From Pelagomonas calceolata (taxonomy: Eukaryota), in NCBI GenBank assembly GCA_918797485.1, contig CAKKNE010000001.1:4650001-4714000 (forward strand): a DNA stretch of 64,000 nucleotides, read 5' to 3'. A program made the position numbers and the translations under genes. Shown in pieces: positions 16,301 to 56,119 of this stretch. Each line of letters starts with the position of its first letter. Position 1 is the first letter of the stretch. The notes beneath the pieces are model-generated. The model was given only the letters and a program-made list of their open reading frames with translations, did not search any database and was not told where the DNA came from.

Positions 16301-16424
16301 GGTTGTCTTTTGTGGCGTTCGTGGTCTTCTTGCCTCGTCGCGGGCCGCGTTTTTGTGAGTTGAAAAAACGGGTTTTCCAAGCGTCATCGCCGCGCAAGCC
16401 CAATAACTCACCGCAGAACGCAAG

Positions 16425-17587: not shown

Positions 17588-18528
17588 CTACTCGGGCGGC
17601 TCCCGCACGACGAACTCGTCCTCGCCCTCGCCCGAGAGCCAGGGCGTCGGCGCGCCCGGCCCGAGCATCGCCGCCGTCTCGGCCGCGTCGATGACGTCCT
17701 CGTGGAGCGTCGAGAGCTTCGCCGACGACGCCACGACCTTGCCCGTCGCGCGGTCCCGGTCGAAGTACCGGATCTGGCCGTCGCGGAAGGCGCGGACGCG
17801 CTCGACGGCGCCCTCGACCTCGTTGACGAGCGGCACGACGCGGATCTCCTCGGGAGGCGTCGCGTAGACGTGGGACGCGCCGCCGCTCGGCCGCGTCACC
17901 CGCAGATACCGCACGTTCTCCTTCGCGAGGGTGTCGACCTGTGCTTGTTACCGTGATCGTCGCCCCGCCGCGAGTGTTCCCGTGGTCGCGTCCGCTCGTC
18001 CACGCCGTCGACGCGACGTCGGTGCAGAAACCGCGGCTGCTCGACGGTGGGGAGGTGCCACCGATCGACGCGATGGTGTCACCGCGACTGCGTCTGCTCG
18101 ACTTCATGGAGGTGCCGCGCTATCGACGCGACGCTGTCCACGGAACTGCATCCGCTCTTTTCACGCCGTCGACGCGACGTCGTCCCCGAAGATAACGAAG
18201 GCTCCTCGCTGATTTCCGCGCAGTTGTCGACGTGCGGGCACGCCGCCTCCTCTTCGTTCGAGAAAATGCCCGGAAACTCGAGCCGCAGGCACGTCGCGGT
18301 GAAGAGCTCCCGCTTCGAGGCGCCGCCCGGCAGCGGTGGTGATGTCCAGCCCTCGTCCAGCGTGCCCTCAGGCAGCAGCGAGAGCTTGGCTCGCAGCTGG
18401 CAGACGACGTTTTTCGCGCCCGTCAGCACCGGGTCCTCTTTTGGCGCATTTTGCTGCGCGGCGTCGCTCTCCGCGTCGCTGCTGTCGTCGATGGCGTCCC
18501 ATTTGGAGTAGTCCGTGAGGGCGGACAT
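17588..18528 (-). CDS. Hypothetical protein with N-terminal DYSKWD motif, one intron
   Basis: Starts MSALTDYSKWDAIDDSSD. Intron 17939-18231 (GT..AG, near-TSD GTCGACAA/GTCGACAC, TIR-like CTGCGCGGAAATCAG) joins in frame to ORF 17588-17914. Confidence 0.65.
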
Positions 18529-18704
18529 GGTTTTGGGCTGTCTTTCCCTCTGGGAGGTTTTATTGGTCACTGCGCGTTGTGAAGGAGGTTATCGCTGCGA
18601 ATTTGCGTTGTGCGCTGTCTGGGCTTAGCCCGCGCGCCTCTGGATGGTGGGTATGCGGCCTCGATCGCGCTGGGTTTTTTACCGGCAGCTAAAAACCCGA
18701 AAAA

Positions 18705-18757
18705 GGGTTTTTCTATCGCACAGTGTAAATTTGCCGGATTCGCTGCGACCAGCTTTC
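18705..18757 (+). promoter_or_regulatory. Candidate upstream Pol III promoter of permuted tRNA-Ser
   Basis: GGGTTTTT-N10-GTGTAAAT-N19-CAGCTTTC; same blocks and near-identical spacing upstream of the permuted tRNA-Leu(CAG). Confidence 0.5.
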
Positions 18758-18778
18758 CATACAAGAGTCAGACGAATG

Positions 18779-18947
18779 ATCGAGGCGTCTTTACATGCGT
18801 CATCACCATTAGCGTCAGCTGCGCAGATCTATCTCCTACGGAGAAAGAAGCGTCTGTTCGAGTCCTGTCCGTGTCGAAACATATTGAGACACGGTGTCCG
18901 AGAAGTGGTGAAACCCACCCGGTCTTGGTTAAGGAGATCGACTAGAA
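18779..18947 (+). tRNA. Circularly permuted tRNA-Ser(AGA) with three ectopic introns
   Basis: 3' half 18779-18876, spacer 18877-18887, 5' half 18888-18947; introns 18783-18807, 18827-18855, 18903-18925. Reassembles to GACACGG TG TCCGAGTGGTTAAGGA G ATCGA CTAGAAA TCGAT TAGCGTCAGCTGC GCAGG TTCGAGT CCTGT CCGTGTC G. Confidence 0.9.
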
Positions 18948-18954
18948 ATCTGGC

Positions 18955-18963
18955 TTTTTTTTT
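18955..18963 (+). terminator. Pol III T-run terminator
   Basis: T9 immediately after the trailer of the permuted tRNA-Ser. Confidence 0.75.
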
Positions 18964-19135
18964 GTTTTTTTATGCTCGTGACGTTGCAACTCGCCGTGGA
19001 AGGAGTTTCGGCTTAGGACCCGCGAGGACGCCGGAAGGCGCACCGAACCGCCTCGAAACGCCCCCCGGCGCCCTACAACAGCCAAACCGAGCGACCCGTG
19101 TACGCCGCCGCCAAAAGTATATCCAAACACAAACC

Positions 19136-20066
19136 TTACGAAGCCCCCTCACCCTCCGAACTCGACGACGACGAGTACGCCACCAACCCCCCCAATTTGG
19201 GCTTCTTCTCGACGGGCGGCGGCGCATCAGCCAAACGCCGCTTCAGCACGACGGGCGCGGGCGGCGACGGCGGCCGCGCGGGTTCCGGCGCGGCGAGCGT
19301 CGGCGGCGGCGCTGGAACGGCCTCGTCCGACGACGACCCTTGTAGTGGCGGCGGCTTCGCGTCGACGGCGCGCGCGGCCTGGGCCCGCTTGAACGCGGCC
19401 ATCTCGTCGCGCTCCTTCGCGCTCATTTCATCAGCGGGCTTCTGCGCGGACCCGAGCTCCGCCCTATCGACGCGCTCGTGGCGCTCGTTGTAGGCCTTGA
19501 TCTCGTCGAGCGCGTCCAAGATGTCCATCTCGATCTTCGAGTCCAGCGTCTTCGACTCGAGCGCGGACATCGCGTTCGCCTCGGCGGCCTCCTTCCGCTC
19601 GCCCTCGAACTTCTCCTCGGCCTCGTCCTGCTGGCGCCAGGACTCGAAGTTGCGCGTGGCGCCTGCGTAGCGTGTCGCGTCGATGGCGTGCGGGCGGTCC
19701 CGAACTCTCTCGGCGGAGGCGCATCGCGTAAGCAAATAACCAGGACGCCGAACGCAAACCGCTCTCACACACATAATCCTGGTTCTTCGGGTCCGTCTTG
19801 AACGCGATCTCGTTGTTGCAGACGCAGCATTTTATATAAAACCGGTACTTCTTTATGCCCAGATAGTCGTCGCCAATCACGTCCTCCTTGCGCGAGTTGA
19901 ACTTCTTGCCCCGGTACATGTACTCGCCGCACTTGATGCACTGCAGCGAGAAGGGGATCATCATGCGTACTTCTACTTGTTTGTACGGGTCGTACTTCCG
20001 CTTCGGCACGAGCAGCGGGTCGAAGTCCGGCGGGAAGTATCTGTTAAGCACTTTCCGCTCGCCCAT
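19136..20066 (-). CDS. YJU2: Splicing factor YJU2/CCDC94
   Basis: MGERKVLNRYFPPDFDP, C..C...RGKKFNSRKE, YLGI, KTDPKNQDY; intron 19663-19759 gives ESGATRNFE. Confidence 0.92.
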
Positions 20067-20500
20067 GGCTGTCTAACGTAGCGCGCGGCGGCGGCGTCGA
20101 GAATCGGCGTCCGCGTGCGCGTGCGTCGATGTGTCTCGAGCAGCGTGGGGGGCGCCTCGGCTGGCGCGCGCGCGGCGGCGGCGTTGAACTGGGGCTGGGC
20201 TGAGCTCTTGGAAAGTAGTGAACCAGCGCTAAAAGCGGTAACGCGCGACGTAGGGGCCGCGTCCGCGTACGCTGCTTTTCCTAGTGCCTTACAAGCGCTA
20301 GCTACGCTGCTGCGGCTGAAGTGGCTGCAGCGAGCGTTTGGACCCAAAGAGCTCACCTCCGCGCGTCCAGGGGCGCTTCTGAAAAGGTTGACTCCTTGCG
20401 CAGCCGGTGTGCCGGTCTATCGGCAGCGGTACGGCCAGTGCCGCCCACTCAAGGACCTGTGCAAGTGCAAACAGCAGACGGACGACGCAGCAGCGGAACA

Positions 20501-21800
20501 ATGCGGTGGCTCACGCTGCTCGCCACCGCAGCAGCGCTCGCACCAAAGGACGACAAATCTTTAGCGCTGTGGCTCCTCGAGCCGTCGCGGACCATCGACG
20601 AGGTGCGGGCCGGCACGGAGACGCTCGCGGCGCGGCCGCCGACGCAGCCCTGCGACGCGCTCGCGCTGTGCATGGCCTCGTGGGCGGCGTCCCAGAAGCA
20701 GCAGGGCGACCTGCTGCCGAAGCTAGCCGCGAAGCTCGCCCCGCGCCTGAGCGAGGCCGTCGACTCGCCGCGCTGCGCCGAGGTGCTCTCGAACACGGCG
20801 CGCGCGTTCGCCGTCGAGGCGGCCCGGTCCGACGCGCCGGAGGCGTTCCAGGGGCTCTTCGCGGCGCTCGAGGAGGCGTGTCGCGCGAAGCGCCTCTCGG
20901 TAGACCGCCGGTGTGGAAGTCAACGTCGCGTCGATGGCGTAACGATCACACACAGGTGGACGCGGGCAACTTCGCCGTGGTCTCGCGGTCCTTCGCCGCC
21001 GCGCGGGAAGTCGGCGCCTGCGCGGACGACGCCGCGCCGTTCCGCGGCGCGGCGCCCGCCGACGTGGCCGAGGCGTGCCTGCGCTCCCTCGACGCGCACG
21101 CGGCCACGGAGCGGCTCGGCGCCCTCGACGACTTCGCCGTCTACTCCGCGTCGGGCGTCATCGACCGAGCGGACGCGGACGAGCTGCTGCGCCTCGCGGA
21201 GGACCAGTGGACGGCGAGCGCCGCGGCGGGCGACGCCACAAACAACTACCGCACGTCCGAGACGGCGTCGCTGCGGGACGACGCGTCGCGCGCGTCGAAG
21301 GCCGTCGACCGCGTCGCCGCCAGGGCCGCGGCGCTGTTTGGCCTGCCGCGGTCGGGCTCCCGCGTCGTTCCCGTCAGCTCACCGGTACGCCATCGACGCG
21401 AAGGGAAGACGAGACAACGCCACACACAGCGAGAAAACACCACGAAGAAAAACACAGGTCGTGCTGCGAGACGCTGCAGCTCGTGCGGTACGCGTCGCCG
21501 GCCGCGTTCTACAAGCCGCACCTCGACTGCCTCGAGGAGGCGGGCCAGGTTTTGTTAGGAGGCCAGCGCGTCGGCACGGTGCTCGTCTACCTCAACGACG
21601 TCGAGGACGGCGGCGCGACGCGCTTCCCGGCGCTCGGCTTGGAGGTGGCGCCGCGCGAGCTGCAGGCCGTCGCCTGGGCGAACGTGCGCGCGGACGGCGT
21701 CCCGGACGTGCGCGCGCGCCACGAGGCGCTGCCCACGGCCGCGACCAAGGTCGCGGTGAACTGCTGGGTGCGGGCGTTCCCGGGGGCGGACGCGCTCTAG
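20501..21800 (+). CDS. Prolyl 4-hydroxylase-like 2OG-Fe(II) oxygenase with signal peptide
   Basis: YRTSET, ETLQLVRY..YKPHLD, LVYLNDVEDGGATRFP, HEALP, KVAVNCW. Introns 20900-20955 and 21351-21457 keep frame. Confidence 0.85.
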
Positions 21801-21901
21801 TTTCCCATGTTAAATTTAGGTGTGTTGTCGTTCTAATTATTCGTCGCTGCGCACCGCGGGCTTCGTTGAGCGGACGTCTGGCGGCCGTCGGCGCCACTAG
21901 G

Positions 21902-24900
21902 GGCTTGCTACGGATGCTGGTAACCTGAAAAAAAAAAAAAGAGGGGGGGGAAAAGGAAAGGTAAGAAAAGAAGGATGCTGCCTGTACACCTGGGCGGCAA
22001 GCTTTCGTACGACTTTCGATAGCAAAATTCCAATTAATTTCAATTTTTAGCAGCTAACAGAGGCTCAAAGGGGAGGGAGCGTACAGAACGGTCCCGGCCT
22101 GCTTTCCGAGACGTGGCGAGGGTCATCAAAAGGGCGCCCGCATTTGCAGGGGTTGGTGCAGTGTTCTCGGCCGCGGACGAGGTGGGCGCCCGTGGGCCGG
22201 CCGCACCGCAAGCACGTCGTCCGGCCGTCGACTCTTGGAGCAGGCACTGGCCTTGGTGGCGGCGGCATAAAGCCCCACGGCGTCGCCGGAGCCGTCGGGA
22301 GGGGCCTGTGCGGGAAGAAAAAGCCGGGCGGCGGCGGCGCGTTCGGGAGGGCGCAGCAGAAGGGCACGACGCCGGGAAACTGGATCGGCTGCCGCTCCGC
22401 GGGCGGCGGCGGCGGCACCCGGGTCGGCCCGCCGGGCTCCGCGGGCGGCGCGGTCGTCGCGTCCCGATCCGCGCGCTGATACCGGTATGCTTCCCGCACA
22501 TTCTGCTGGTCGGCCGGCGTCAGATCTTGAACTACTTCCACTGGATTATACCGACGGTCATACTCGTCGTAGAGCTGCTCCATCGTTTTCAACCTAAGCT
22601 TAAGATGAGCGTCGCCGGCGAGCTGCTTGTGTACCTCCGTGATAACACGTTCGGTCCACTCCGTCATGAACTTCTGGTAGGAGCTCGAGCTACTGCGCGT
22701 ATACTTCTTGTGGAGCTCTTCAAACAGTCTGCGCTCGTCCTCGCCGTCCGGGCCCTCGTTGAACGGCGTCGGCGCCTTGTCCTTCATGCCCGAGAGCTTC
22801 CCTAGGTGGTCAAACGACGTCGTGCGGTTGTTGATGGCCTTATTAACACTCACACGTTTCAAAGAATCGTCGCCGCCCTGGTCGACGTCCTCGACGATCA
22901 CGTCAAAGTGCCTCCCGTCGCCTTGATCGTCTACGTGCCACGCGAGGTGGATGGACGGCGCGTCGACGTCCACGGTTCCGTCGGGAAGAAGCTCCTGGTG
23001 GTACGGCACACGGCTCTCGGTTCGTCGGACACGACCATCAGGATGTATGATCGAGATGAAAATAGAAAAGCCGAACGCGAGGCCCAACCCCATCAACATC
23101 AAGTGGTCGCCCCAGCGACTATTTGGCGCCTTCTCGTTGTGCAAGTCATCCTCATTGGTCATCTCCTCGAACCAGCGGTCCCACGACCCGTGCCGCGCAG
23201 AAGCTTCGTTGTCGAGCGGGGCGCGGTCGGCGTGCACACGACTTTCTCGGTGCGTGCGCATACGTCGTGCCGCTTCAGTCCGCAGATTTATGATCTCTCG
23301 GCGCACCACAAGATCGTTGCCGTCCTTCCAGTCGATTTCAGCAGTAAAAGGGCTGGCCTTATACGTGAGGCTGCAGCCGCAAACGCCCGGTAGAGGCACC
23401 TGCCGTCGCCACGCACGGTCTGGACGAAGGATTGCGGCTGGGGCACGTCCGGGGGCGCGTCGTCCTCGGGGCTGACTGGCGTGGGGTCGTCATTCAAGTT
23501 CAGACGCGACAAGTCGACGATGTTCTGGCACTCCATTCCAAACTTTTCGTCCCCTCGGCCACGCTCATTAATGTTGAGCTTTGGGAAGGGGAGGTCGTCG
23601 GTCTGAGGGGCGAAGGATGCGGCGATACTATTGATCACCGCTAGCGTCTCGTGGTGGTACGTGTGGTAGTCCACGTCGCCGAGCTTGTCGATGCCGCGGT
23701 CGATGTTCCAGCGGTAGATGAAGGACCCGACGGCGTGTTCCGCCCGGACAGTACCACAGGTCGTCGAGCCGATCGCTGCCCGAAGTAGGCGATGCATCGC
23801 TTCCGACTGCGAAGAACCACGGGAAGTAAAGTAGAGCGGCGGCGCAGGCCGACCAGGTCGCCTCGATCGTGAAGCCTTCGCTGGCCGCGACGTGTAGAGG
23901 CGCGCTCCGGGCGGGTCCGACAGGCATCCCTGGCATGCAGCCCTAGGCGTCGTGCCAGGCGTCGGGCACGCGGCATTTAGATGGACCCTGCACACATGCT
24001 TCATCTGCTTCTTTTTGACCGAAGCAAATTTTTTCGGGTTGAAGAACAGAGGCCTATCAGCCACGGCGGCCATCTCCGCGTCGGTCTCGTTACCCTGAAT
24101 CTCGTTTTGCGCCGCGGCCGCGAGGATTGCGGTGTCTCGCTTCACGAAGACGTTCAGGACGTTCTCGATATTCTCACGAAGTTGTTTCGGCGGCGGCACC
24201 ACGCGGCGGCACATGCCGTAGATCTCCCCGCGTTTCTTCTTCGGGTAGTAATCCGTAAGTAAGGCGACGTCATTGGGGTCTGGTACAAGCACGGCGTCGC
24301 GTAGCATCGCCCGGAACTGCCAGCGGAGCTTGTGGGTCGATGGTATCGAGATGGCCTCGTCCCAGCGAGCAAACCAGTGGAACGGGTCCAACAAAATAGG
24401 CACGTCGGGGAACACGCGGTTGAATGCTGTTCGCCGAGAACAGCAGTTGTCGATGTAGATTGCACTGGGCATGTAGTCGTCGCCGTGCATCTTTTTAAGG
24501 CGTGCCAGAAGTGCCGCGAAGTGCGGCTCGGTCTCCTCAAAAGCGTCCTCGCGATGGTGAAATCCATACCACATGACCTGTGTAGACCGACGGCGTCGAC
24601 GCCGCGTCGATGGCGTCGATGGAGTGGACGTCTGATTCGACGCTGTAGTAGCACCTGGCCCGCCTCGTTTACGACAGAAGCGAACCCTCCAAAAGGCTTA
24701 AACAGCATGCCCGAGTCCGGGTGGTAGCACACGATTTTCTCGGCGATCTTGTAGGTGAAATCTGTCTTAAGTACCTGGCCAGACAGACCGGCGAGTTGGG
24801 TAGTGACAAACTCGCGTCGGTCAGACCACATCCCTGCAGCAATATCATCAACGATGTCTCGGCCCACAAATACGCCGTTCCACCCATTTTTATCGTCGAA

Positions 24901-26327
24901 GTCCAGGAAAGGAGGCGGGACGTAGCGAACAGTTCCGTTCTCAGCGTTCTGCGCAGCTTCGCGTTCTTCCATCGCGGCCTTGCAGGCAGCAGCCGCAGCG
25001 CGCCGGTCGGCGAGCTTCTCCACGTCGTTCGGTTGCTCTGGTTGAGAAGGAGGAGTAGTAGGCGGCGGCCACGAGCCGTACTTCTCCTCGAGATACTCCA
25101 GCGCCATCGCTTTATAATGTTGGAGCGCCTTCAATTGGTCAGAGCGGTCGCGCTTCTTGGACACTGACCGAGCAATCAGCGCCGATTCCTGCACGGCCTC
25201 CAGGTCCTGGATACTATGAACGTTGATTTCTCTGAACATCGCAACCTTCCCTGGTCCAAAACCCCTCAGTTCTGATAGTCTATCAATGCGAGGGGCTGCT
25301 CGCCGTTCGTCTCGAGCTCGCCGCGCAGCGCCGAGTTGATTCACGACCTCCGCAGCAGTCCTCGCATCTGCGAGACTACCTCTAGCAACACCGAGCGCTA
25401 GTCGAGCTGGACGTTGATTGGTGTTGTTTGTCCTCTCGGCCGAAGTGAGACGACCGTGAAGTGCCCAATAGTTCAGCTGCTGGCCGTAGTAATATTCGAT
25501 GTAGAAGTGCTGGAGTATTCGTACTGTAGGAGCTGTTCCGAGCGGGTCCCAGGCGTCCTCGATCAGCTTTGCCTGTGTGTAAATCGACTATTACTGACAC
25601 GTCGACGCCGTCGACGCCGTCGACGCTGGGCCGCACGAGGTCAGCTTCCACGGCGTACTTCTTGCCCTTGAAAATGTTGAAAAACGACCGCACATGGATC
25701 GGGCACTGCGCGATGGACTTTGGATCTGTCAAGCGAAAAAGTATACCACAACGCTTGCACTTGAGCCGCACGGTGTCCAACCACCAGTGGTCGTGGACGC
25801 CAAAGACGCGCACGACGTTCGATGGCCATACTTTCGACTTTACGTCCACCATCGAATCCTTGCCAATGCAGCAGTCATTTGGACAAGGTGGTGCTGGTAG
25901 TTCATTATGGAAGAAGATGTGTGGCAACCACACGCCGATGGGGCGTCGGTACCACTGCTCGCGCTGAGGCGGTTGGCGCGTGCGCGCCGCGCGCCATGCC
26001 GCGTCCGGCGGGTTCCAGTGCCAACCATTGGAGAATATTTCTTCGCAGAGCTGCTGAGGGCTGCCCCACAACGTGTCGATGCGTCGCCGCAGCCTCTGGA
26101 CGTCGTCGCGGACGTGCGGCCCACAGGACCACTGGCCAGTGTTTTTTTTGGCCGGTGCTGGCGCCGGCGCCGGCGCCGGGACGTCGTCAGCAGCCGCGAG
26201 GGCCGCTAGGACGCAGCCGATCACAGTCAGGGTGCGCATTTTACCCTCTCCCGGCCAAAAACACGCTGCCGAAAAGGTAAACTTACACATACCATAAGTG
26301 CACTTTTACCGGTATCCGTAGCCGGTC
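21902..26327 (-). mobile_element. 4.4-kb DNA transposon with imperfect TIRs and 8-bp TSD
   Basis: CCACTAGG flanks both ends (21894-21901, 26328-26335). Termini GGCTTGCTACGGATGCTGGTAA vs reverse complement GACCGGCTACGGATACCGGTAA (17/22). Encloses a transposase gene. Confidence 0.82.
22065..26290 (-). CDS. Dada/DUF6729-like DDE transposase fused to OTU-like protease; two introns and one apparent frameshift
   Basis: Motifs WLP..CP..R...CKRC, LKTDFTYK, VVNEAGQV, YIDNCC, LDPFHW, RGSSQSEAMH; OTU GDGRCLYRA..WGDH..HFD; C-terminal Cys/His knuckle. Introns 25573-25636 and 24578-24654 restore frame; frame change near 23340-23390. Alternative start at 26239. Confidence 0.75.
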
Positions 26328-26526
26328 CCACTAGGAATCGTTTGGAGCTGCTGCCCCTTCGGAGAGCCGCGCGCTGCCTGGCGCATCGCTGCCTCCGCCG
26401 CCGCCGCGAGCTCACGACCGCCCACGACGCCGCCGCCGCGCCGCCGCCACGCTGCCCGCGCCGCTCCGCGCGCCGGACTCTGTCCGCACCACCTTGGCAG
26501 CCCCTGGGGCGCCTGCGTCGCGCAAT

Positions 26527-26730
26527 ATGTCCGACGATCATAGCGCCACGCGCAAAACGGACCGCACGTCGCAGGAGCTCGACGCGGTGCGCGCCATGGT
26601 GGCGGAGATGCGAAGGGATATTGCCGCGCTCCGGGCCGAGCTCGGGTCCGACGCGGAGCCCCACCACGTCGCGCCGTGGCCCACGGCGGCCTCGGCCTAT
26701 GCGTCCATACCCACCGTGCCCCGCGTGTGA
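26527..26730 (+). CDS. Possible small coiled-coil protein
   Basis: 67-aa ORF with heptad-like ELDAVRAMVAEMRRDIAALRAEL and GC3 bias; no recognised family. Confidence 0.35.
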   Translation: MSDDHSATRKTDRTSQELDAVRAMVAEMRRDIAALRAELGSDAEPHHVAPWPTAASAYASIPTVPRV

Positions 26731-27081
26731 TCATGTTTTCCGTGTAAATTGATTTGTACCTGGCCGCGGCGTCGTCGGCGGCGTGAGCGTAGTCCGCGGC
26801 CCGGCTCCTTTCGAGCCGGCTGGACGAGGCTCGGCGAAGGCTCGGGAGGCCTCCATAAATGACACGGTCGCGCGGTGACTTGGGCTAGCGCTTAGAGGCA
26901 CTAGCCAACTTCTTGGCTAAAAACTGAGCAAGGCGCAGCGAAACGCAGCAGCGCAGGGTTTATCCGCGCTCGAGGGCATTTCAGAGCTAGACCAACGCTC
27001 TCGCCGCGGACCCAGCCAAGCCGCGCCGAGCGCGCTCCCCCGCGGCCGCAATTGAAGCGCACCACCTTGGACACCAGTAGA

Positions 27082-27720
27082 ATGCTGCGCGCAGCGTTCG
27101 CGCGCGTCGCCCGCGCGGCGGCGCCGCCCGCGCGCGCCGCCATGCGGCCCGCGCGCGCCGCCGCCCCCCGCACGACGCAAACGCGGTTCTTGGCCTCGTC
27201 CCTCCAGGAGACGAAGTCCGTCGACGACTTTTTACAAGCCCCGCCGGAAAATAAAGTCGAGTTCATGGTCACGAAGGTCGATGAATTGGTGAACTGGGCG
27301 CGCAAGGGCTCGCTCTGGCCCATGACCTTTGGGCTGGCCTGCTGCGCGGTCGAGATGATGCACTCGGCGACTTCCAGATACGACATGGAGCGTTTTGGGA
27401 TGGTGTTTCGAGCCTCACCTAGACAGTCCGACGTCATGATCGTCGCCGGCACGCTCACGAACAAGATGGCGCCGGCCCTTCGCAAAGTCTACGACCAGAT
27501 GCCCGAGCCGCGCTGGGTGCTGTCCATGGGCTCGTGTGCCAACGGCGGCGGCTACTACCACTACTCCTACTCCGTGGTGAGGGGCGTGGACCGCATCGTG
27601 CCCGTGGACATCTACGTGCCGGGCTGCCCGCCGACGGCGGAGGCGCTGCTGTACGGGCTCCTGCAGCTCCAGAAGAAGGTCAAGTCGAACCGTAGTTTAT
27701 TGCTCCGGCTGCGCAAGTAA
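27082..27720 (+). CDS. NDUFS7: Mitochondrial complex I PSST/20-kDa subunit
   Basis: [52 protein letters not shown]; Arg/Ala-rich presequence. Confidence 0.97.
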
Positions 27721-29597
27721 TTTGCTGTTTATATATTGCGTGTTCGTCGCGGCGACGGCGTGCGGGGGTTTCGAACGTCTGTCGGCACGCGACGCGCACG
27801 TCGTCACGCCATCGCCGCTTCAACGACGTCTAAACGGGCTCCCAAATTCAAGATTCATCATAGTCGTCCACTGAGACCATTTCTGTACGAATAGCGCCCA
27901 GGAATGCAGCAGCAAGAAACTAGCGTGTGACATACTAGCAAATCCAAAGATACGCTCCGATAGCGTCCAAAGAATGACCGAAAATCAGAATACATTCCTG
28001 TTGATCGCCGCGACCAAAGAGTTTAGAATAGAGGCCCGGGAACATACCCTCGCGCCTCCCGGAAGGCACCGCCCGCGACATTCGCGGACGAGTCTTACGG
28101 CTTGCCAAAGTACACCAGCGATTGACGCCGCAATCTACCGTCCAGATGGGACATTATATCAACTCCAGCCCAGTTTTCATACAAGTTCGACGGAACCGGA
28201 GCCGACGGCCCGCGCTCGGAGGGCGGGAAAAGAATTCTACTAGACAACTCCCGAGTTTATGTTCGTTTCCTTCCGTTTGTTGGGGGTAGAGTCCATCCAG
28301 CCCGCCTCAACATTTACTGAGCCCAGTCTCTTGATCCGTACGAGCCGCGGGATTCGACGACTTCGGTACCGCGCGTTTGTGCATAGACAAGCCTAGAACC
28401 CAAAACCGCGAGTATCAGCGACGACACCATCCAGATGGACCATGACGCCGTTGTTCTATTCACAATCGACCGACTTGCCCGTTCTCCGCGGACGACGGTG
28501 CGTACGCGGGGCACTGGAAAGGCCCCAGACCCGTGAGTTATGAAATAAAATTGCGTTTCAGGCGCTTCGGTTGAGGGACGGGCCAGCTAACCGGGCTGAG
28601 CGGCTACTACATGCTAGAGACCCAAAGATGCTCGGCGCGGGTCGTCGGTCTCGCGAGCCCACAATCTGGCTATATTTGGCTCCAGACCCGGACCTGCGGC
28701 CATCAGCCCGTGTACCATCACCATGGACCATGAAACGATCATTTGTTCTATGATTGACCGACTTGCGCGAGGTCCAGATCAAGATGTTCACGTCCCGAGC
28801 GTGGTCGGCCCAAAGTACCCTTCTCATGGTGTAGATGTCATATACTTGTAGTTGACTATCGGTGGGGTAGTATGGGGTCCGACGGGACCGCTACGGCGAC
28901 TACTGGGTGCCCTCGGGTAATTGACGTTTTTGACGGGAACGGGGCGCCATCGGGCCCAAATTGCACACTTTTTTCGGATGTAGATCGGCTCGCGGACTCC
29001 CTCCGGGATAGGTCTGGGGTCGGGTGGTCGCCGAAGCCGCATGCGCCGGTGCTTGGGGCTCTCCAGAGAGCTCTGGATCCAAAACCTTGGCATTTTGTGC
29101 AATAGCTATTCAGCTGGAGATGCATCTTGGCAGATGTATCTGAAGCGGGAAGCGGCCGCGCATGCGGCGTAGGCGATTGCACATGTATTGTACCGACCCC
29201 GAACGGCCTCCGAGGGACCTCGGGACCACGAATCGACAGGAATCCACCGACGCGCCCGCCATGGCGGCGTCGTCAATTTCGCGAATTAAAAAAATTAATT
29301 TTTTCGGCCCCCAGGAAGTGTCCCATTGATCTCTTTGGACCACGAGCGAACCGAACGCTCCTCAAACAGCTGCAATGCGCGTTCCGAGTGCATGCTAGTG
29401 TCTTACATCGCTATCCAGGCTCCCTGCGCAATCGAGCTTGACTGCCAGTATTCACCATCAAACCGCCCTCCGCGGGCGTACAGAGCCATGCGAGCAACCC
29501 CTGTGAACGCTCCGCTCCCTCATTGCATCTGTATCGGCATTCTGATTGCAGGTGACACCACAAGCCACTGCACACTGCACAGACAGCACCTCCTGTG

Positions 29598-31163
29598 ATG
29601 GCATCATTAGACGCCCTCGCCGCGACAGCAGGAGGCGCGGCACCAGCAGACGCCATCGCCGCGACAGCAGGACACGCGGCGATCGAAGCGGCCAAAACCG
29701 GCGACCTCCCAAAACTAGCCGCCGCGGGCGACGGGGCGCTGCGCGCCGTCGACGCCTACGGCTCGAACGCGCTGCACTGGGCCGCCGGCCGCGGCCACCT
29801 GGCTTTGGTAAGGCACCTCGTGCAGGACCGGGGGATGGACGCTTCATTTCCAGCAAATCCGCCGCGGCGCCGCGACGCGCCGACGACGCGCGGCCGGACC
29901 GCGCTCCACTACGCGGCGCGCAACGGCCACCTTGACGTCGTCGAGTATCTGGTAAAGCGGCCCGACGTCGACGCGGACGCGCGCGCCGAGGGCGGCGTCT
30001 CGCCCGCGCAATTAGCCTGCTGGCGCAACGAATTTGACGTTGTGAAACGCCTCGTCGCCGCCGGCGTCGACGTTTCACAAAAAAACGACGCCGGCTGCGG
30101 CTTCGCGCACTGGCTCGCCTGCGCGCCGCGGGACGCGGGCGACCTCCGGCCGCTCGCGGCGTGGCTCGCCGCGCGGCTCGGTCCTACTGCTCTTGCCGTC
30201 GAGCCGAACGGCCACGGCCACACGTGCCTGCACAAGGCCGCCTTCGCGGGCCACTTTGACTTGTGCGCGTATCTGGTCTCGTGCTTTTTTGCGGCGTCCT
30301 GTTGTTCCTTCGCGTTGTGCATCGCGCGTTGTCTGCCGTCGTCGCGTCGACGGCGTGCTGACTGTGTACGTGTTCGTCGCGTCTAAAGCGTACCGATGGG
30401 GACGCGTCCGCCTCGACGCTGTCTCCTCTACGCCGTTGACTGATGTACACGTCCGCCTCAACGCCGTCGCCGCGCCACGTCCAGAGAACGGGCGCCACGC
30501 GCCACGCCATCGACGCGCCACGCACGCAGCCTCGGCGCCGACGACGCCGTGCTGGACGCGACGGGCGGCCGCGCCTCGGACGACGCCGACGCGGCCGGGC
30601 ACCCCGAGCTGCGCGACTTTTTGCGGCGGCACGCGGACCGCGCGAAAGATAAAGCGAGTCGCACGGCGTTGGGTTTGCCCGCGGCCGGCGCGCTCGACGC
30701 GGTTCACGTAAGGGACGCGTTTCGGGAAAAAGCGCTCGCGACGCACCCCGACCGGGCGGTCGGCGACGACGCCGCCTTCGTGGAGGCGCGGGCGGCGCGC
30801 GATTACTTGAGCGGCGTGGTTGATGAGGACGCTCGAGTGACACGGCGCCTGCCGTTACTGATCGAGGCGCTCGGGCCCGCACCGGGCGAGGCGCGCGCTC
30901 ATGTGTTCGCGGCGCGCGTCGTCGCCGCGATTCTAGAACACGGCGACGGCGGCGTCGCGCTCGCACACCTCCCGAAAAAGTTCCGTCTTTTATGGGGCCG
31001 CGAGTTCGGCGAGGCGGCGGCGGCGGCCGGCTTTCCGCAGCGGGGCGTGAAGCGCGTTCTCTGGCGGCTGAAGTACGCCGTCCGTATTTCGAAGGGAGAG
31101 CCGCCGATGGCTTTTTCGCGGGTGTTGTGTTCGGAGGTGCGGGCGCGGCTCGAGGCTTCTTGA
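29598..31163 (+). CDS. Ankyrin-repeat protein with J-domain-like region and possible LOTUS/OST-HTH-like C-terminus
   Basis: Ankyrin repeats (GSNALHWAA, GRTALHYAA, GHTCLHKAA); intron 30281-30529; then VRDAFREKALATHPDR (HPD). Confidence 0.72.
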
Positions 31164-31239
31164 CTGGCGCGATGTTTGTGTGGTGGTGGTGTTTTTGTGC
31201 TTAACGATTGTCACTTGACCCGTGATCTTGCCTTGGCGC

Positions 31240-31291
31240 GGGTTTTTTGTCGGTCCCGTGTAAATCGCAAGGAATAAGGGAATCAGCTCTC
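31240..31291 (+). promoter_or_regulatory. Candidate upstream Pol III promoter of permuted tRNA-Leu(CAG)
   Basis: GGGTTTTT-N10-GTGTAAAT-N18-CAGCTCTC; matches 18705-18757. Confidence 0.5.
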
Positions 31292-31305: not shown

Positions 31306-31443
31306 TACTGGTCTTTTCGAAGGCGTGGGTTCGAGTTCTCTAGTCGGAACGATCCTAACCCCACGGTCCGTAGATACATCGCGGATCTGAAACCTGAACA
31401 TCAAGGTTGAGTTTGCCGAGCGGTCTAAGGCGCCAGTTTCAGG
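31306..31443 (+). tRNA. Circularly permuted tRNA-Leu(CAG) with two ectopic introns
   Basis: 3' half 31306-31372, spacer 31373-31380, 5' half 31381-31443; introns 31334-31356 and 31390-31414. Reassembles to GCGGATC TG GCCGAGCGGTCTAAGGC G CCAGT TTCAGGT ACTGG TCTTTTCGAAGGC GTGGG TTCGAAC CCCAC GGTCCGT A. Confidence 0.9.
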
Positions 31444-31453
31444 TAGATGTCTC

Positions 31454-31461
31454 TTTTTTTT
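31454..31461 (+). terminator. Pol III T-run terminator
   Basis: T8 right after the trailer AGATGTCTC. Confidence 0.75.
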
Positions 31462-31790
31462 GTTTTTTTTGTTTTGTTTTTTTTGTGCCCCGGCCGCGCC
31501 CCCGTCTTTTTGAGCCACCCCGAGGGCCGCGCGCGCGCCGTCGGCGAACTAGTCTCCTATTATCTCCACCAGGGGTCTCTAGGCGCTCCAGGAGAAGCCT
31601 CCGTACTCGTATCGAGCGCACCAAGCGACCCCGGGCAGAAAGCTCCTCGGATCTCAGTTCCAGGTGTCCTCGCAGTTGACCGCGGCGCACGCACGCGGTG
31701 AACGAGAAAGGCTGCGGCAAAGCAGCTGAATCGGCTCAGGACATCCGTCGCGCCGCCCTGAGAAAGCAGCGCCGCGTATCAACGAGCACA

Positions 31791-33279
31791 ATGCGACTAC
31801 GAACCCAATGCTTACTACTCTGCGCAACAAACGCAGCCGCGCTGCAGCTCCAACCAGCCCCGCAGCTCATCTTACTACTCTGCGCAACAAACGCAGCCGC
31901 GCTGCAGCTCCAACCAGCCCCGCAGCTCATCAAAAGACCACACCAGCAGCCGCGCGTCATCCTCACGACCGAACAAGTGGAAAAGCTCGAGCGCAGCGTC
32001 GCCGCGGCGCTGCCGGCCGTCGGGCAGTGGGCCGCGTTCGGCGGCGTCGTGTCTGCGTTCACTGGTTTCCTCTGGGGATGGGCCGGCCTGCCCGCGGCAG
32101 GGCTCTACGCGTCGTCCGTCGCGAGCGGGACGGCGTGGGCCCTCGCCTGGGATCACATCATGCCGGGCGGCTCGTACGCGGCGTCCTTTTTATATCGTCT
32201 CCACGCCATCGACGCGTCTGCTCGATGGCGTCTGCTCGATGGCGTGCCGGTGACGCGATGTCAGCTCGCTGGACCTCCACGCTATCGACGCGACGTCAGC
32301 TCGACTCACTGGTAACACACGCAGGTGGCCGGCGAGTCGCCGAGATGATGGGCGGCACGACGGTCGGCGTGCCGTGTAGCGTTCGCGACGCCGTGGCAAA
32401 GACCGCCGCCGCCGCGAAAATGCCCGCGCCGGCCGCGTACATCGTGCCGACCAAGGAACCGAACGCGTTTGCCGCGGGCCGCGGCCGCGACCGCGTCGTG
32501 GCCGTGACGCAAGGGCTCGTGGATCTCCTCGACCGGCGCAGACCCGTGCCGAAATCTCGACGACGTACCTCGCGTCGATAGCGTGCCTGCGCGTCGAGGC
32601 CAAGCAGCCACACCACGCCATCGCCACGCCGCGCAAGTCGCGAAGAAAGGACACCGCGACGCAGGCGGGAGCTCGAGGCCGTCGTGGCCCACGAAGTCGG
32701 CCACCTCAAGCACGGCGACACGGGCCGCGCCGCACAAGCCGCGGCCATGCTCTCGGGCCTCTCGGCCGCGAAACGCGCCGGCGACCGCATGGTAGCGAAC
32801 AAGCGAAAAGAGAAATCGGACGCGTCCGTCGCCGCGGCCCTCGCCGCCGCGGGCGCCGCCTCGTCGGCCGCGGGGCTGCTGCTCCGTCTCGCATGAATCC
32901 GCGCGCAAAATCACGCGGGCGATGGCGTGGAGGTGGGAGCCTCGCCGAAGACTAAAAAATCGCAACGCAGGCGGGAAGCCGGCGCGACGAGTTCGCCGCG
33001 GACGCCGTCGCCGCGCAGTTCGTCGACGCCGGCGCGCTGGCGGGCGCGCTCAAGAAGATCGAGGCCGCGGGCGCGCCGCGGGACAAGCTGCACGCGCGGG
33101 CGGGCGCCTACGCGCACGCGTACTTTAGCAACGACGACGGGCCGTCGCGCTGGCTCCGGACGCACCCGACCGTCGAGGCTCGGATCAACGCTCTAAAATC
33201 GGGCGCGCCGCCCGGACGCGCGCCGCCGCCGGCCTGGGCGCGGTTCGCCGCCGAGGCCGTCGCGGAGTCGGTCTCGTAA
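31791..33279 (+). CDS. Peptidase M48 (HtpX-like) with three GC-AG introns
   Basis: EPNAFAAG, VAVTQGL, ELEAVVAHEVGH, SRRDEFAAD, RTHPTVEARI; introns ~32167-32324, 32536-32664, 32891-32970. Confidence 0.85.
31811..31930 (+). repeat. Perfect 60-bp tandem duplication in signal-peptide region
   Basis: LLLCATNAAALQLQPAPQLI encoded twice by identical DNA. Confidence 0.95.
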
Positions 33280-34549: not shown

Positions 34550-34819
34550 CGTCTTGGGGTTTGCTGCTGTGCGTGGGCTGCCTCGCTCTCGCACCTGCAG
34601 CGCACTCTTGAGGCGCTGTTTGAGCAGGCGGGGGGTCCGCCGCCCTACGCGTGCGCGCTCGATAGTAGACCTCGTCGGAGCGCTCTCTGCCTCAATTCGA
34701 GAGCCCACGAAATTCGGACGAAGCGCGCTGCGCGATGAGGCTCAGCTCGACCAATGTGGCCCAAACTCCGGCAGGATGGTCGTCTCGTCGTCGCAGACAA
34801 AAAAAAATCAAAAAAAGAG

Positions 34820-34922
34820 TACAGTCTGCGGGATTCGAACCCGCGCCCGAAGACCAGTGCCTTAAACTGGCGCCTTAGACCACTCCGTTGGGACGTGGTT
34901 TCACACGTCTGGCCAAAACTGC
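34820..34922 (-). tRNA. tRNA-Leu(AAG) with 25-nt ectopic BHB intron at 12/13
   Basis: GCAGTTT TG GCC[intron 34886-34910]GAGTGGTCTAAGGC G CCAGT TTAAGGC ACTGG TCTTCGGGC GCGGG TTCGAAT CCCGC AGACTGT A, followed by T-runs. Confidence 0.93.
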
Positions 34923-35210
34923 ACTCAGGGGTCTTGCGACTCCTATTTTTTCGTAAGGACACCTGATTTCGCCGGCGGCAAGCTATCTAAATTGTTCATT
35001 TGCAAACCCCTAAATTTTTTGATTTGGCCCGCTAATTGCCCGATTTGACCGCAGCCAGGTCAATTCTCGACCTTCGAGCCCGAAACTCGCAAAAACCCAA
35101 ACTACGCAGCCCACAGCCACACCTCGCGAAGCCGGCTGCGAAACGAGCGCCGTCACGCGGAGATAAACGCAAAAAACGCGACCCTGGCTAGCAGGCCGCC
35201 TTGCGGCAGC

Positions 35211-55798: not shown

Positions 55799-56119
55799 TT
55801 GTTGCAAATCGTAGTCTGACTTAGGACGAGTCTCCTGTACGCACCGCCTCGCCGCCGCGTCGCAAGGTTAGGCTAGCGTCAACACCAGTTTGGTCCGATT
55901 TTGTACTGTCTCTGACCGGCAGAGAAAAATGGCCGCTTTGGCGTGAAGATGACAGTGATTCGCCTCGGCGCGCGACGTCGGCGCGGCTGAGAACGCCTCT
56001 ATTGACCGGGCGCGCCAAAAAATCGCGCTGGAAAACCCGTTTTAATTTGCCCGACGCGTGCGACCTGTATAGACTGAATCAACTGGACAGAAAGAATTAT
56101 GCAAAAAAGGGACGAGCAA

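Follow-up and report, generated by a model that had tools for sequence, protein, structure and literature searches.

In a window of 64,000 nucleotides (nt) from Pelagomonas calceolata (assembly GCA_918797485.1, contig CAKKNE010000001.1, positions 4,650,001 to 4,714,000, forward strand; positions below count from the first letter of this window), we found two permuted tRNA genes, for Ser-AGA and Leu-CAG, that share an upstream motif made of two boxes at a fixed distance and a downstream CAGCTYTC. A role of this motif as an upstream RNA polymerase III (Pol III) promoter element, put forward in a preliminary description of the sequence, is well supported by its fixed position before two tRNA genes that end in T-runs, by its conservation in an ortholog, and by the lack of an mRNA 3' end at the Ser-AGA copy. 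The motif is probably a gene-external, three-part Pol III promoter that starts transcription without an ordered pair of A and B boxes and so tolerates permutation and introns. It is plausible that transcription depends on the motif instead of on TFIIIC.

We rebuilt the tRNA genes. In the raw window, ARAGORN caught one of three genes, a non-permuted Leu-AAG, and that only partly, and an Rfam search of the window gave no tRNA match. After introns shaped like a bulge-helix-bulge (BHB) were spliced out and the halves re-ordered, ARAGORN returned canonical cloverleaves for Ser(aga), Leu(cag) and Leu(AAG), and all three genes end in long T-runs. In Ser-AGA and Leu-CAG the 3' half stands before the 5' half, a T-stretch lies downstream, and no terminator lies between the halves; the same order of halves is seen in the Leu-CAG ortholog, on a metagenome contig (L163), and in a relative's contig from run X15. 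The rebuilt Ser(AGA) aligns over all four joins, free of internal gaps, to an ordinary viral tRNA-Ser(AGA) that has no introns, and 69 of 81 nt are identical. In the X15 contig, the relative's permuted Ser has a shorter spacer, carries a compensatory acceptor-stem pair, and is joined exactly at the 15/16 boundary (18926), meaning that the D-loop intron at 18903-18925 is absent or spliced; the contig may be DNA without this intron, or spliced RNA. The Leu-CAG 37/38 junction forms a strict leader-trailer BHB with four of four central pairs. At the Ser 37/38 junction, read by hand, the spacing and the outer helix fit and two of the four central pairs form. We also sought U6, 7SL and MRP genes in the window and found none.

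The motif, GGGTTTTT-N10-GTGTAAAT followed after 18 or 19 nt by CAGCTYTC, was defined post hoc from two sites. The preliminary description had reported it as a shared, spaced motif at 18705-18757 and 31240-31291, and it is indeed exact at both places and well above chance: the two boxes occupy 18705-18730 and 31240-31265, with CAGCTTTC at 18750 after 19 nt and CAGCTCTC at 31284 after 18 nt. Allowing up to three mismatches, the window contains three matches, compared with a shuffle mean of 0.11, and none of 100 shuffles reached three. Within the window the exact two-box motif stands only 5' of tRNA genes. An upstream element combined with a TATA-like box at conserved spacing, the arrangement of type 3 promoters, is present with a 10-nt spacer in both genes and in L163 (where this spacing was preset by the search pattern), and weakly in Leu-AAG. 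We find it very improbable that the likeness of the two sites is due to chance, or is a relic, with no present function, of an old duplication of a tRNA gene and its flank. Duplication does give rise to tRNA genes, and the post hoc definition invites such a reading; the null tests, from the shuffles above to a search for pairs of 8-mers, speak against it. Two exact 8-mers on one diagonal occurred in none of 20,000 shuffles of both motif regions; when 20,000 pairs of AT-richer 80-mers were drawn at random from the window, a single pair had them, owing to a local duplication. Moreover, the spacers of the two copies are unrelated in sequence, so these copies are not a recent duplication, and in the ortholog the boxes are unchanged while the spacers are 50% changed.

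This ortholog was the only pelagophyte-like locus among the 73 metagenome matches to the motif. Eighteen of its motif positions were fixed by the search pattern, and their identity is therefore conditional. Box 1 and box 2 each agree with the window at 8/8 positions, and the 10- and 18-nt spacings are kept; the spacers themselves agree at 5/10 and 9/18 positions (14/28 together, 50%), the 20 nt 5' of box 1 at 6/20, and an insertion of about 38 nt separates the two sequences further upstream. CAG plus leader is identical at 21/22 positions, the exons at 82/82 and the trailer at 10/10. The neighboring gene is identical at 64/68 third codon positions and the downstream intergenic DNA at 169/204 positions, compared with 20/48 for the non-box positions of the promoter zone, which is thus far more diverged. 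This divergence matches the elevated mutation reported for the flanks of active tRNA genes (PMC6130373; papers are cited by PMC number and, except for the annotation table used below, from excerpts of their text). At 50% local divergence, the search-fixed motif positions would rarely all survive, and six consensus positions that were free of the search pattern also fit (p about 0.02). The introns behave differently from the exons: the 9/10 intron has diverged, and the 23-nt T-loop intron (31334-31356) is precisely absent from L163. Non-canonical tRNA introns are therefore present or absent between close relatives.

Next, we considered the internal promoter. The preliminary description had the internal boxes of the permuted genes reversed in order and mostly broken by introns; the breaks hold for the A box and only in part for the B box. 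The A-box consensus is absent from all three window genes, broken by introns; the A/B order is inverted in two of the three; and none of them has both boxes intact with the A box first, as a type 2 promoter would. The B-box core is broken only in the window's Leu-CAG, where no B-box consensus is left. For the transcription machinery, the nearest reference was the annotation table for P. calceolata, given as file 4 in the supplement of PMC9481584, of which chromosomes 1-5 and the first chromosome 6 genes, an estimated 88% of genes, were covered. In this portion of the table the terms TFIIIC, IIIC (besides HAD phosphatases), B-block, Tau95, GTF3C, "factor 3C" and Tfc4 had no match. The same table lists Brf1, Bdp1, Pol III subunits and SNAP43, along with three splicing-endonuclease subunits (two catalytic subunits and Sen54). 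The absence of TFIIIC from this portion of the table is at most suggestive.

We propose that a DNA-binding factor, SNAPc-like or other, would bind GGGTTTTT and help TFIIIB (TBP-Brf1-Bdp1) to load on the TATA-like TGTAAAT, 18 base pairs (bp) further on. Pol III would start at about the A of CAGCTYTC and terminate in the T-run. The single precursor, about 170-205 nt long, would contain the 3' half, the spacer and the 5' half in this order. The tRNA splicing endonuclease would then excise the BHB introns and join leader to trailer at 37/38; the resulting circle, by analogy with what has been shown for Cyanidioschyzon merolae, would be opened at the acceptor stem. Since initiation would not need intact internal boxes, permutation as well as intron gain and loss inside the A and B boxes would be tolerated. 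The BHB of the Ser 41/42 intron (18777-18808), read by hand with a fold, includes two leader bases in its central helix, which predicts removal of this intron before the 37/38 joining.

Several observations weigh against such a promoter. Known support is limited to two genes and one ortholog, and the remark in the preliminary description that there were only two good examples stands with this one addition. TGTAAAT is not a canonical TATA box. It begins 26-27 nt 5' of the A of CAG, which is a predicted start, whereas type 3 promoters are defined by a TATA box some 25-30 bp before a mapped start; no pre-tRNA 5' end was seen. The RNA runs, which were poly(A)-selected, contain no reads from the tRNA-coding strand on the gene bodies and hence no precursor. 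TBP (PF00352) and SNAP50, like TFIIIC, were not seen in the covered 88% of the annotation table. The B-box core is intact in Ser-AGA (at +105, with intron 52/53 at its edge), in Leu-AAG and in L163. The weaker, similarly spaced version that had been described before Leu-AAG is there, at 35010-34958 on the minus strand; it fits at 11 of 16 box positions and ranks fourth of about 128,000 positions when the CAG is counted, behind, among others, a non-tRNA site at 26264 that lies at a protein start. Its CAGGTGTC occurs six times in the window, and an alternative AT-rich stretch lies about 20-33 nt 5' of the mature Leu-AAG end; with this stretch inside the leader, the true start may be nearer the gene. 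The sole pelagophyte-like metagenome match turned out to be the ortholog of a seed and added no new tRNA gene, and the exact consensus, as these results mildly suggest, is not universal. Finally, GGGTTTT alone is located near a protein-gene start in 5 of 10 cases, compared with a background of 17% (p = 0.017, uncorrected for 35 words).

In yeast, TFIIIC is recruited to the U6 gene by a B box. The intact B-box cores listed above would be in keeping with a motif that is an accessory landing site for TFIIIB, like those of plants and fission yeast or the mammalian TATA-like boxes at -31/-24, and replaces only the start-site role of the A box, with TFIIIC present and recruited by the B box; we regard this as unlikely, although it deserves more weight than the other alternatives. 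The window's Leu-CAG is without a B-box consensus, owing to an intron that the ortholog does not have. In favor of an accessory role, type 2 promoters are known to be strengthened by TATA-like boxes that lie upstream (PMC7279448; PMC13578239). As to the missing TFIIIC, about 12% of the annotation table lay outside the coverage and divergent subunits can be missed, yet the fast-evolving Bdp1, Sen54 and SNAP43 were all detected in the table and no TFIIIC subunit was.

The frequency of GGGTTTT near gene starts suggests another possibility, namely that the boxes serve the neighboring protein genes, GGGTTTT as an RNA polymerase II (Pol II) word and TGTAAAT as a poly(A) signal, and that their pairing before tRNAs is incidental. 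To assess this, we placed both copies in their transcript context. The Ser copy adjoins a divergent mRNA 5' end: a minus-strand mRNA begins at about 18666-18690 in all three poly(A) runs (strand by the usual library convention, consistent with an ATG near 18528). Read depth is 0 across 18708-19115 in 3/3 runs; no mRNA ends here, which rules out a poly(A) signal at the Ser copy. The Leu-CAG copy adjoins the 3' end of a tandem mRNA, where the upstream plus-strand mRNA fades out within 31144-31287, the bin that contains the motif, and the RNA reads show no divergent mRNA start at this copy. An additional poly(A) role is possible at Leu-CAG. In Chlamydomonas, UGUAA is reported as the poly(A) signal. 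Across the window, TGTAA falls in the 3' zone in 5 of 42 cases, three of which are the stop codon itself, and so shows no enrichment after stop codons. As the contexts of the two copies differ, the downstream tRNA is their only common feature, and a service to protein genes leaves the identical 10-nt spacing and the CAGCTYTC at both sites unexplained. We therefore consider this explanation improbable. GGGTTTT is nonetheless a candidate general promoter word, judging from the sequence, and two protein-gene upstream regions, 16360-16380 (+) and 56028-56048 (-), share 15 identical bases around it (16370+ and 56038-). Box 1 may be such a general word, made specific for Pol III by its distance from box 2.

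The preliminary description had also suggested using the motif plus a T-run to find hidden tRNAs, and in our hands the motif scans yielded no further tRNA gene. We scanned viral contigs (52 and 109 matches) and a metagenome (73 matches), and among these 234 matches only L163 yields a convincing tRNA; three of three positive controls were recovered by the same search. None of the 52 strict viral matches had a CAG at 17-20 nt or an ARAGORN tRNA, and the viral matches, being chance, served as negative controls. Two individual matches were rejected: L032, whose low tRNA score (103) was taken as noise, and L167, the most GC-rich metagenome match, which has bacterial-looking open reading frames (ORFs) and no tRNA. 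Independently of the motif, a BHB-splice-and-circularise search behind 102 T-run regions of the window found no further tRNA. At its default threshold this search recovered both Leu genes and missed Ser, and a looser run gave only low-scoring noise; given the missed Ser, a hidden fourth gene in the window is possible.

We compared this system with those previously known. The concept of an external promoter for disrupted tRNA genes is already known from C. merolae, where it is a proposal: upstream, TFIIIC-independent transcription of permuted and intron-broken tRNA genes (Soma et al. 2007, 2013; PMC3978253; PMC3728597). The two systems share type II (37/38) permutation, including that of Leu(CAG), a downstream T-stretch, and BHB introns that lie at non-canonical positions and interrupt A and B boxes. 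In C. merolae, TFC1 and TFC3 were not found (PMC3978253). They differ in that C. merolae is a red alga, whereas the genes described here are in a stramenopile nucleus. For C. merolae a single TATA-like element is described, in place of the two boxes with their fixed distance and the conserved predicted initiator, and its permuted genes have at most one extra intron instead of two (Leu-CAG) or three (Ser-AGA) (PMC3978253). The presence or absence of introns between close relatives is a further feature of the genes described here. In prasinophytes, Auxenochlorella and the Bigelowiella nucleomorph, junctions are likewise mostly at 37/38 and often in class II tRNAs (Ser, Leu) (PMC3978253; PMC12633428), but these belong to the green lineage and have few introns, and only an "ambiguous AT-rich region" is reported upstream (PMC3978253; PMC3728597).

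Type 3 Pol III promoters (U6, 7SL/SRP, plant and ciliate telomerase RNA) are similar to the motif in that an upstream or proximal sequence element (USE/PSE) and a TATA box lie outside the gene at fixed spacing (PMC8287931). They are SNAPc-dependent, and SNAP43 is annotated in P. calceolata. Unlike them, the motif precedes tRNA genes, and its box starts are 18 bp apart, compared with a USE-TATA spacing of 23-24 bp at Pol III genes of A. thaliana (PMC8287931). In the excerpts of that study, the stramenopiles analysed had no conserved USE except Blastocystis and Proteromonas. The TATA-like and CAA elements upstream of plant and yeast tRNA genes resemble the motif in having an AT-rich part between about -20 and -35 and a start motif of the CA type; in contrast to the motif, these elements act together with intact A and B boxes and TFIIIC, with no second fixed upstream box (PMC13578239).

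Permuted tRNA hosts listed in the excerpts comprise archaea, red algae, green algae and a nucleomorph of green origin (PMC3978253; PMC13578239; PMC12633428). Among the papers listed by our literature search, whose coverage left out most subscription titles (Maruyama 2010 and Hummel 2026 among them), none reported permuted tRNA genes in a stramenopile nucleus, and tRNA is nowhere mentioned in the main text of the P. calceolata genome paper (PMC9481584). Passages of PMC4247016 and PMC4156623 contained no conserved motif upstream of diatom tRNA or U6 genes, and PMC3945056 names none of six taxa that we looked for in it. A. anophagefferens has 123 tRNAscan-detectable tRNAs according to excerpts of PMC11237714, hinting that tRNA gene disruption is limited to the lineage. 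Apparently new, then, are the lineage, the architecture of two boxes plus initiator, the two to three extra introns of the permuted genes, and the fact that an intron can be present in one close relative and absent in another. For the transcription of permuted and intron-broken tRNA genes, the C. merolae idea is based on a TATA-like sequence that is only loosely defined and on TFIIIC homologues that are missing. With a conserved motif of sharp definition, there are precise bases for mutation, and tRNA genes overlooked by standard tools can be searched for. The genes extend permuted tRNAs to a stramenopile nucleus and point to repeated independent origin once transcription moves upstream. We offer only tentatively a broader scenario, in which the pelagophyte lineage lost TFIIIC and came to use a compact two-box external promoter with the non-canonical TATA element TGTAAAT; its tRNA genes, relieved of their promoter role, became permuted, and gain and loss of BHB introns continues among close relatives, possibly as gene-to-gene copies; and a Cyanidioschyzon-like system arose independently in stramenopiles. 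If true, this origin could be watched while still under way, in an ocean alga that is abundant and in culture. In practice, the motif would offer pelagophytes a short Pol III promoter from which guide RNAs could be expressed.

Table 1. Motif copies, tRNA genes and predicted terminators in the window.
Feature	Position	Strand	Remark
Box 1 GGGTTTTT, Ser	18705..18712	+	predicted -46 to -39 from the A of CAG
Box 2 GTGTAAAT, TATA-like, Ser	18723..18730	+	predicted -28 to -21
CAGCTTTC, predicted initiator, Ser	18750..18757	+	predicted start at A18751; identical 8-mer 5' of the Leu-CAG ortholog L163
Permuted tRNA-Ser(AGA), junction 37/38	18779..18947	+	ARAGORN cloverleaf after splicing and re-ordering
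Ser-AGA 3' half	18779-18876	+	introns 41/42 at 18783-18807 and 52/53 at 18827-18855
Ser-AGA intervening sequence	18877-18887	+	11 nt
Ser-AGA 5' half	18888-18947	+	intron 15/16 at 18903-18925
T-run, predicted Pol III terminator of Ser-AGA	18955..18971	+	
Box 1 GGGTTTTT, Leu-CAG	31240..31247	+	predicted -45 to -38; L163 8/8, 7 of them search-fixed
Box 2 GTGTAAAT, Leu-CAG	31258..31265	+	predicted -27 to -20; L163 8/8, all search-fixed
CAGCTCTC, predicted initiator, Leu-CAG	31284..31291	+	L163 has CAGCTTTC, only CAG search-fixed
Permuted tRNA-Leu(CAG), junction 37/38	31306..31443	+	ARAGORN cloverleaf after splicing and re-ordering
Leu-CAG 3' half	31306-31372	+	intron 57/58 at 31334-31356, inside B box
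Leu-CAG intervening sequence between halves		+	8 nt
Leu-CAG 5' half	31381-31443	+	intron 9/10 at 31390-31414, inside A box
T-runs, predicted Pol III terminator of Leu-CAG	31454..31484	+	L163 T-rich there too
T-runs of Leu-AAG	34799-34816	-	
Non-permuted tRNA-Leu(AAG)	34820..34922	-	BHB intron 12/13 at 34886-34910 inside A box; B box intact
Weak copy GGGGTTTG-N10-ATTTAGAT-N19-CAGGTGTC	34958..35010	-	role uncertain; would imply a 42-nt leader

The tRNA introns and flanks had some further features. The D-arm intron hairpins of two unrelated tRNAs hold the window's only two copies of GTGAAACC, at 18908-18915 (+) and 34897-34904 (-). This pair may reflect copying of introns between tRNA genes, or chance; such copying has reportedly occurred in Thermoproteales. 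At Leu-AAG, alignment of both the X15 and the X16 contigs ends at 34884, the intron boundary, and the presumed 42-nt leader (34923-34965, minus strand) folds weakly (z -1.6, not significant).

Related sequences were also sought in other genomes. Six viral contigs (L291-L296, about 985-1310; two labelled GVMAG) carry ordinary tRNA clusters in which Ser(AGA) is 85% identical to the rebuilt Ser, and no copy of the motif was seen upstream of Ser(AGA) in these six. The two Leu patterns had no match in the viral contigs. A search of prokaryote genomes with the permuted-Ser junction pattern gave 56 matches, all titled bacteria or archaea.

The window is gene-dense and eukaryotic and has about 63% GC; the P. 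calceolata genome is likewise described as 63% GC, with introner-type introns (PMC9481584). Among the named close relatives of the NDUFS7 protein encoded in the window are pelagophyte proteins with 88-91% identity, and a match with 99% identity belongs to a cluster that includes a protein of Aureococcus. Marine metatranscriptomes are among the sequencing runs in which this DNA occurs. Between 27800 and 29550 lies an AT-richer stretch with no ORF of at least 150 amino acids and with a local duplication (about 28400 and 28720). Two spliced mRNA introns, at 32169-32323 (155 nt) and 32535-32663 (129 nt), resemble pelagophyte introner elements, and their terminal words are repeated transcriptome-wide, in thousands of partial reads.

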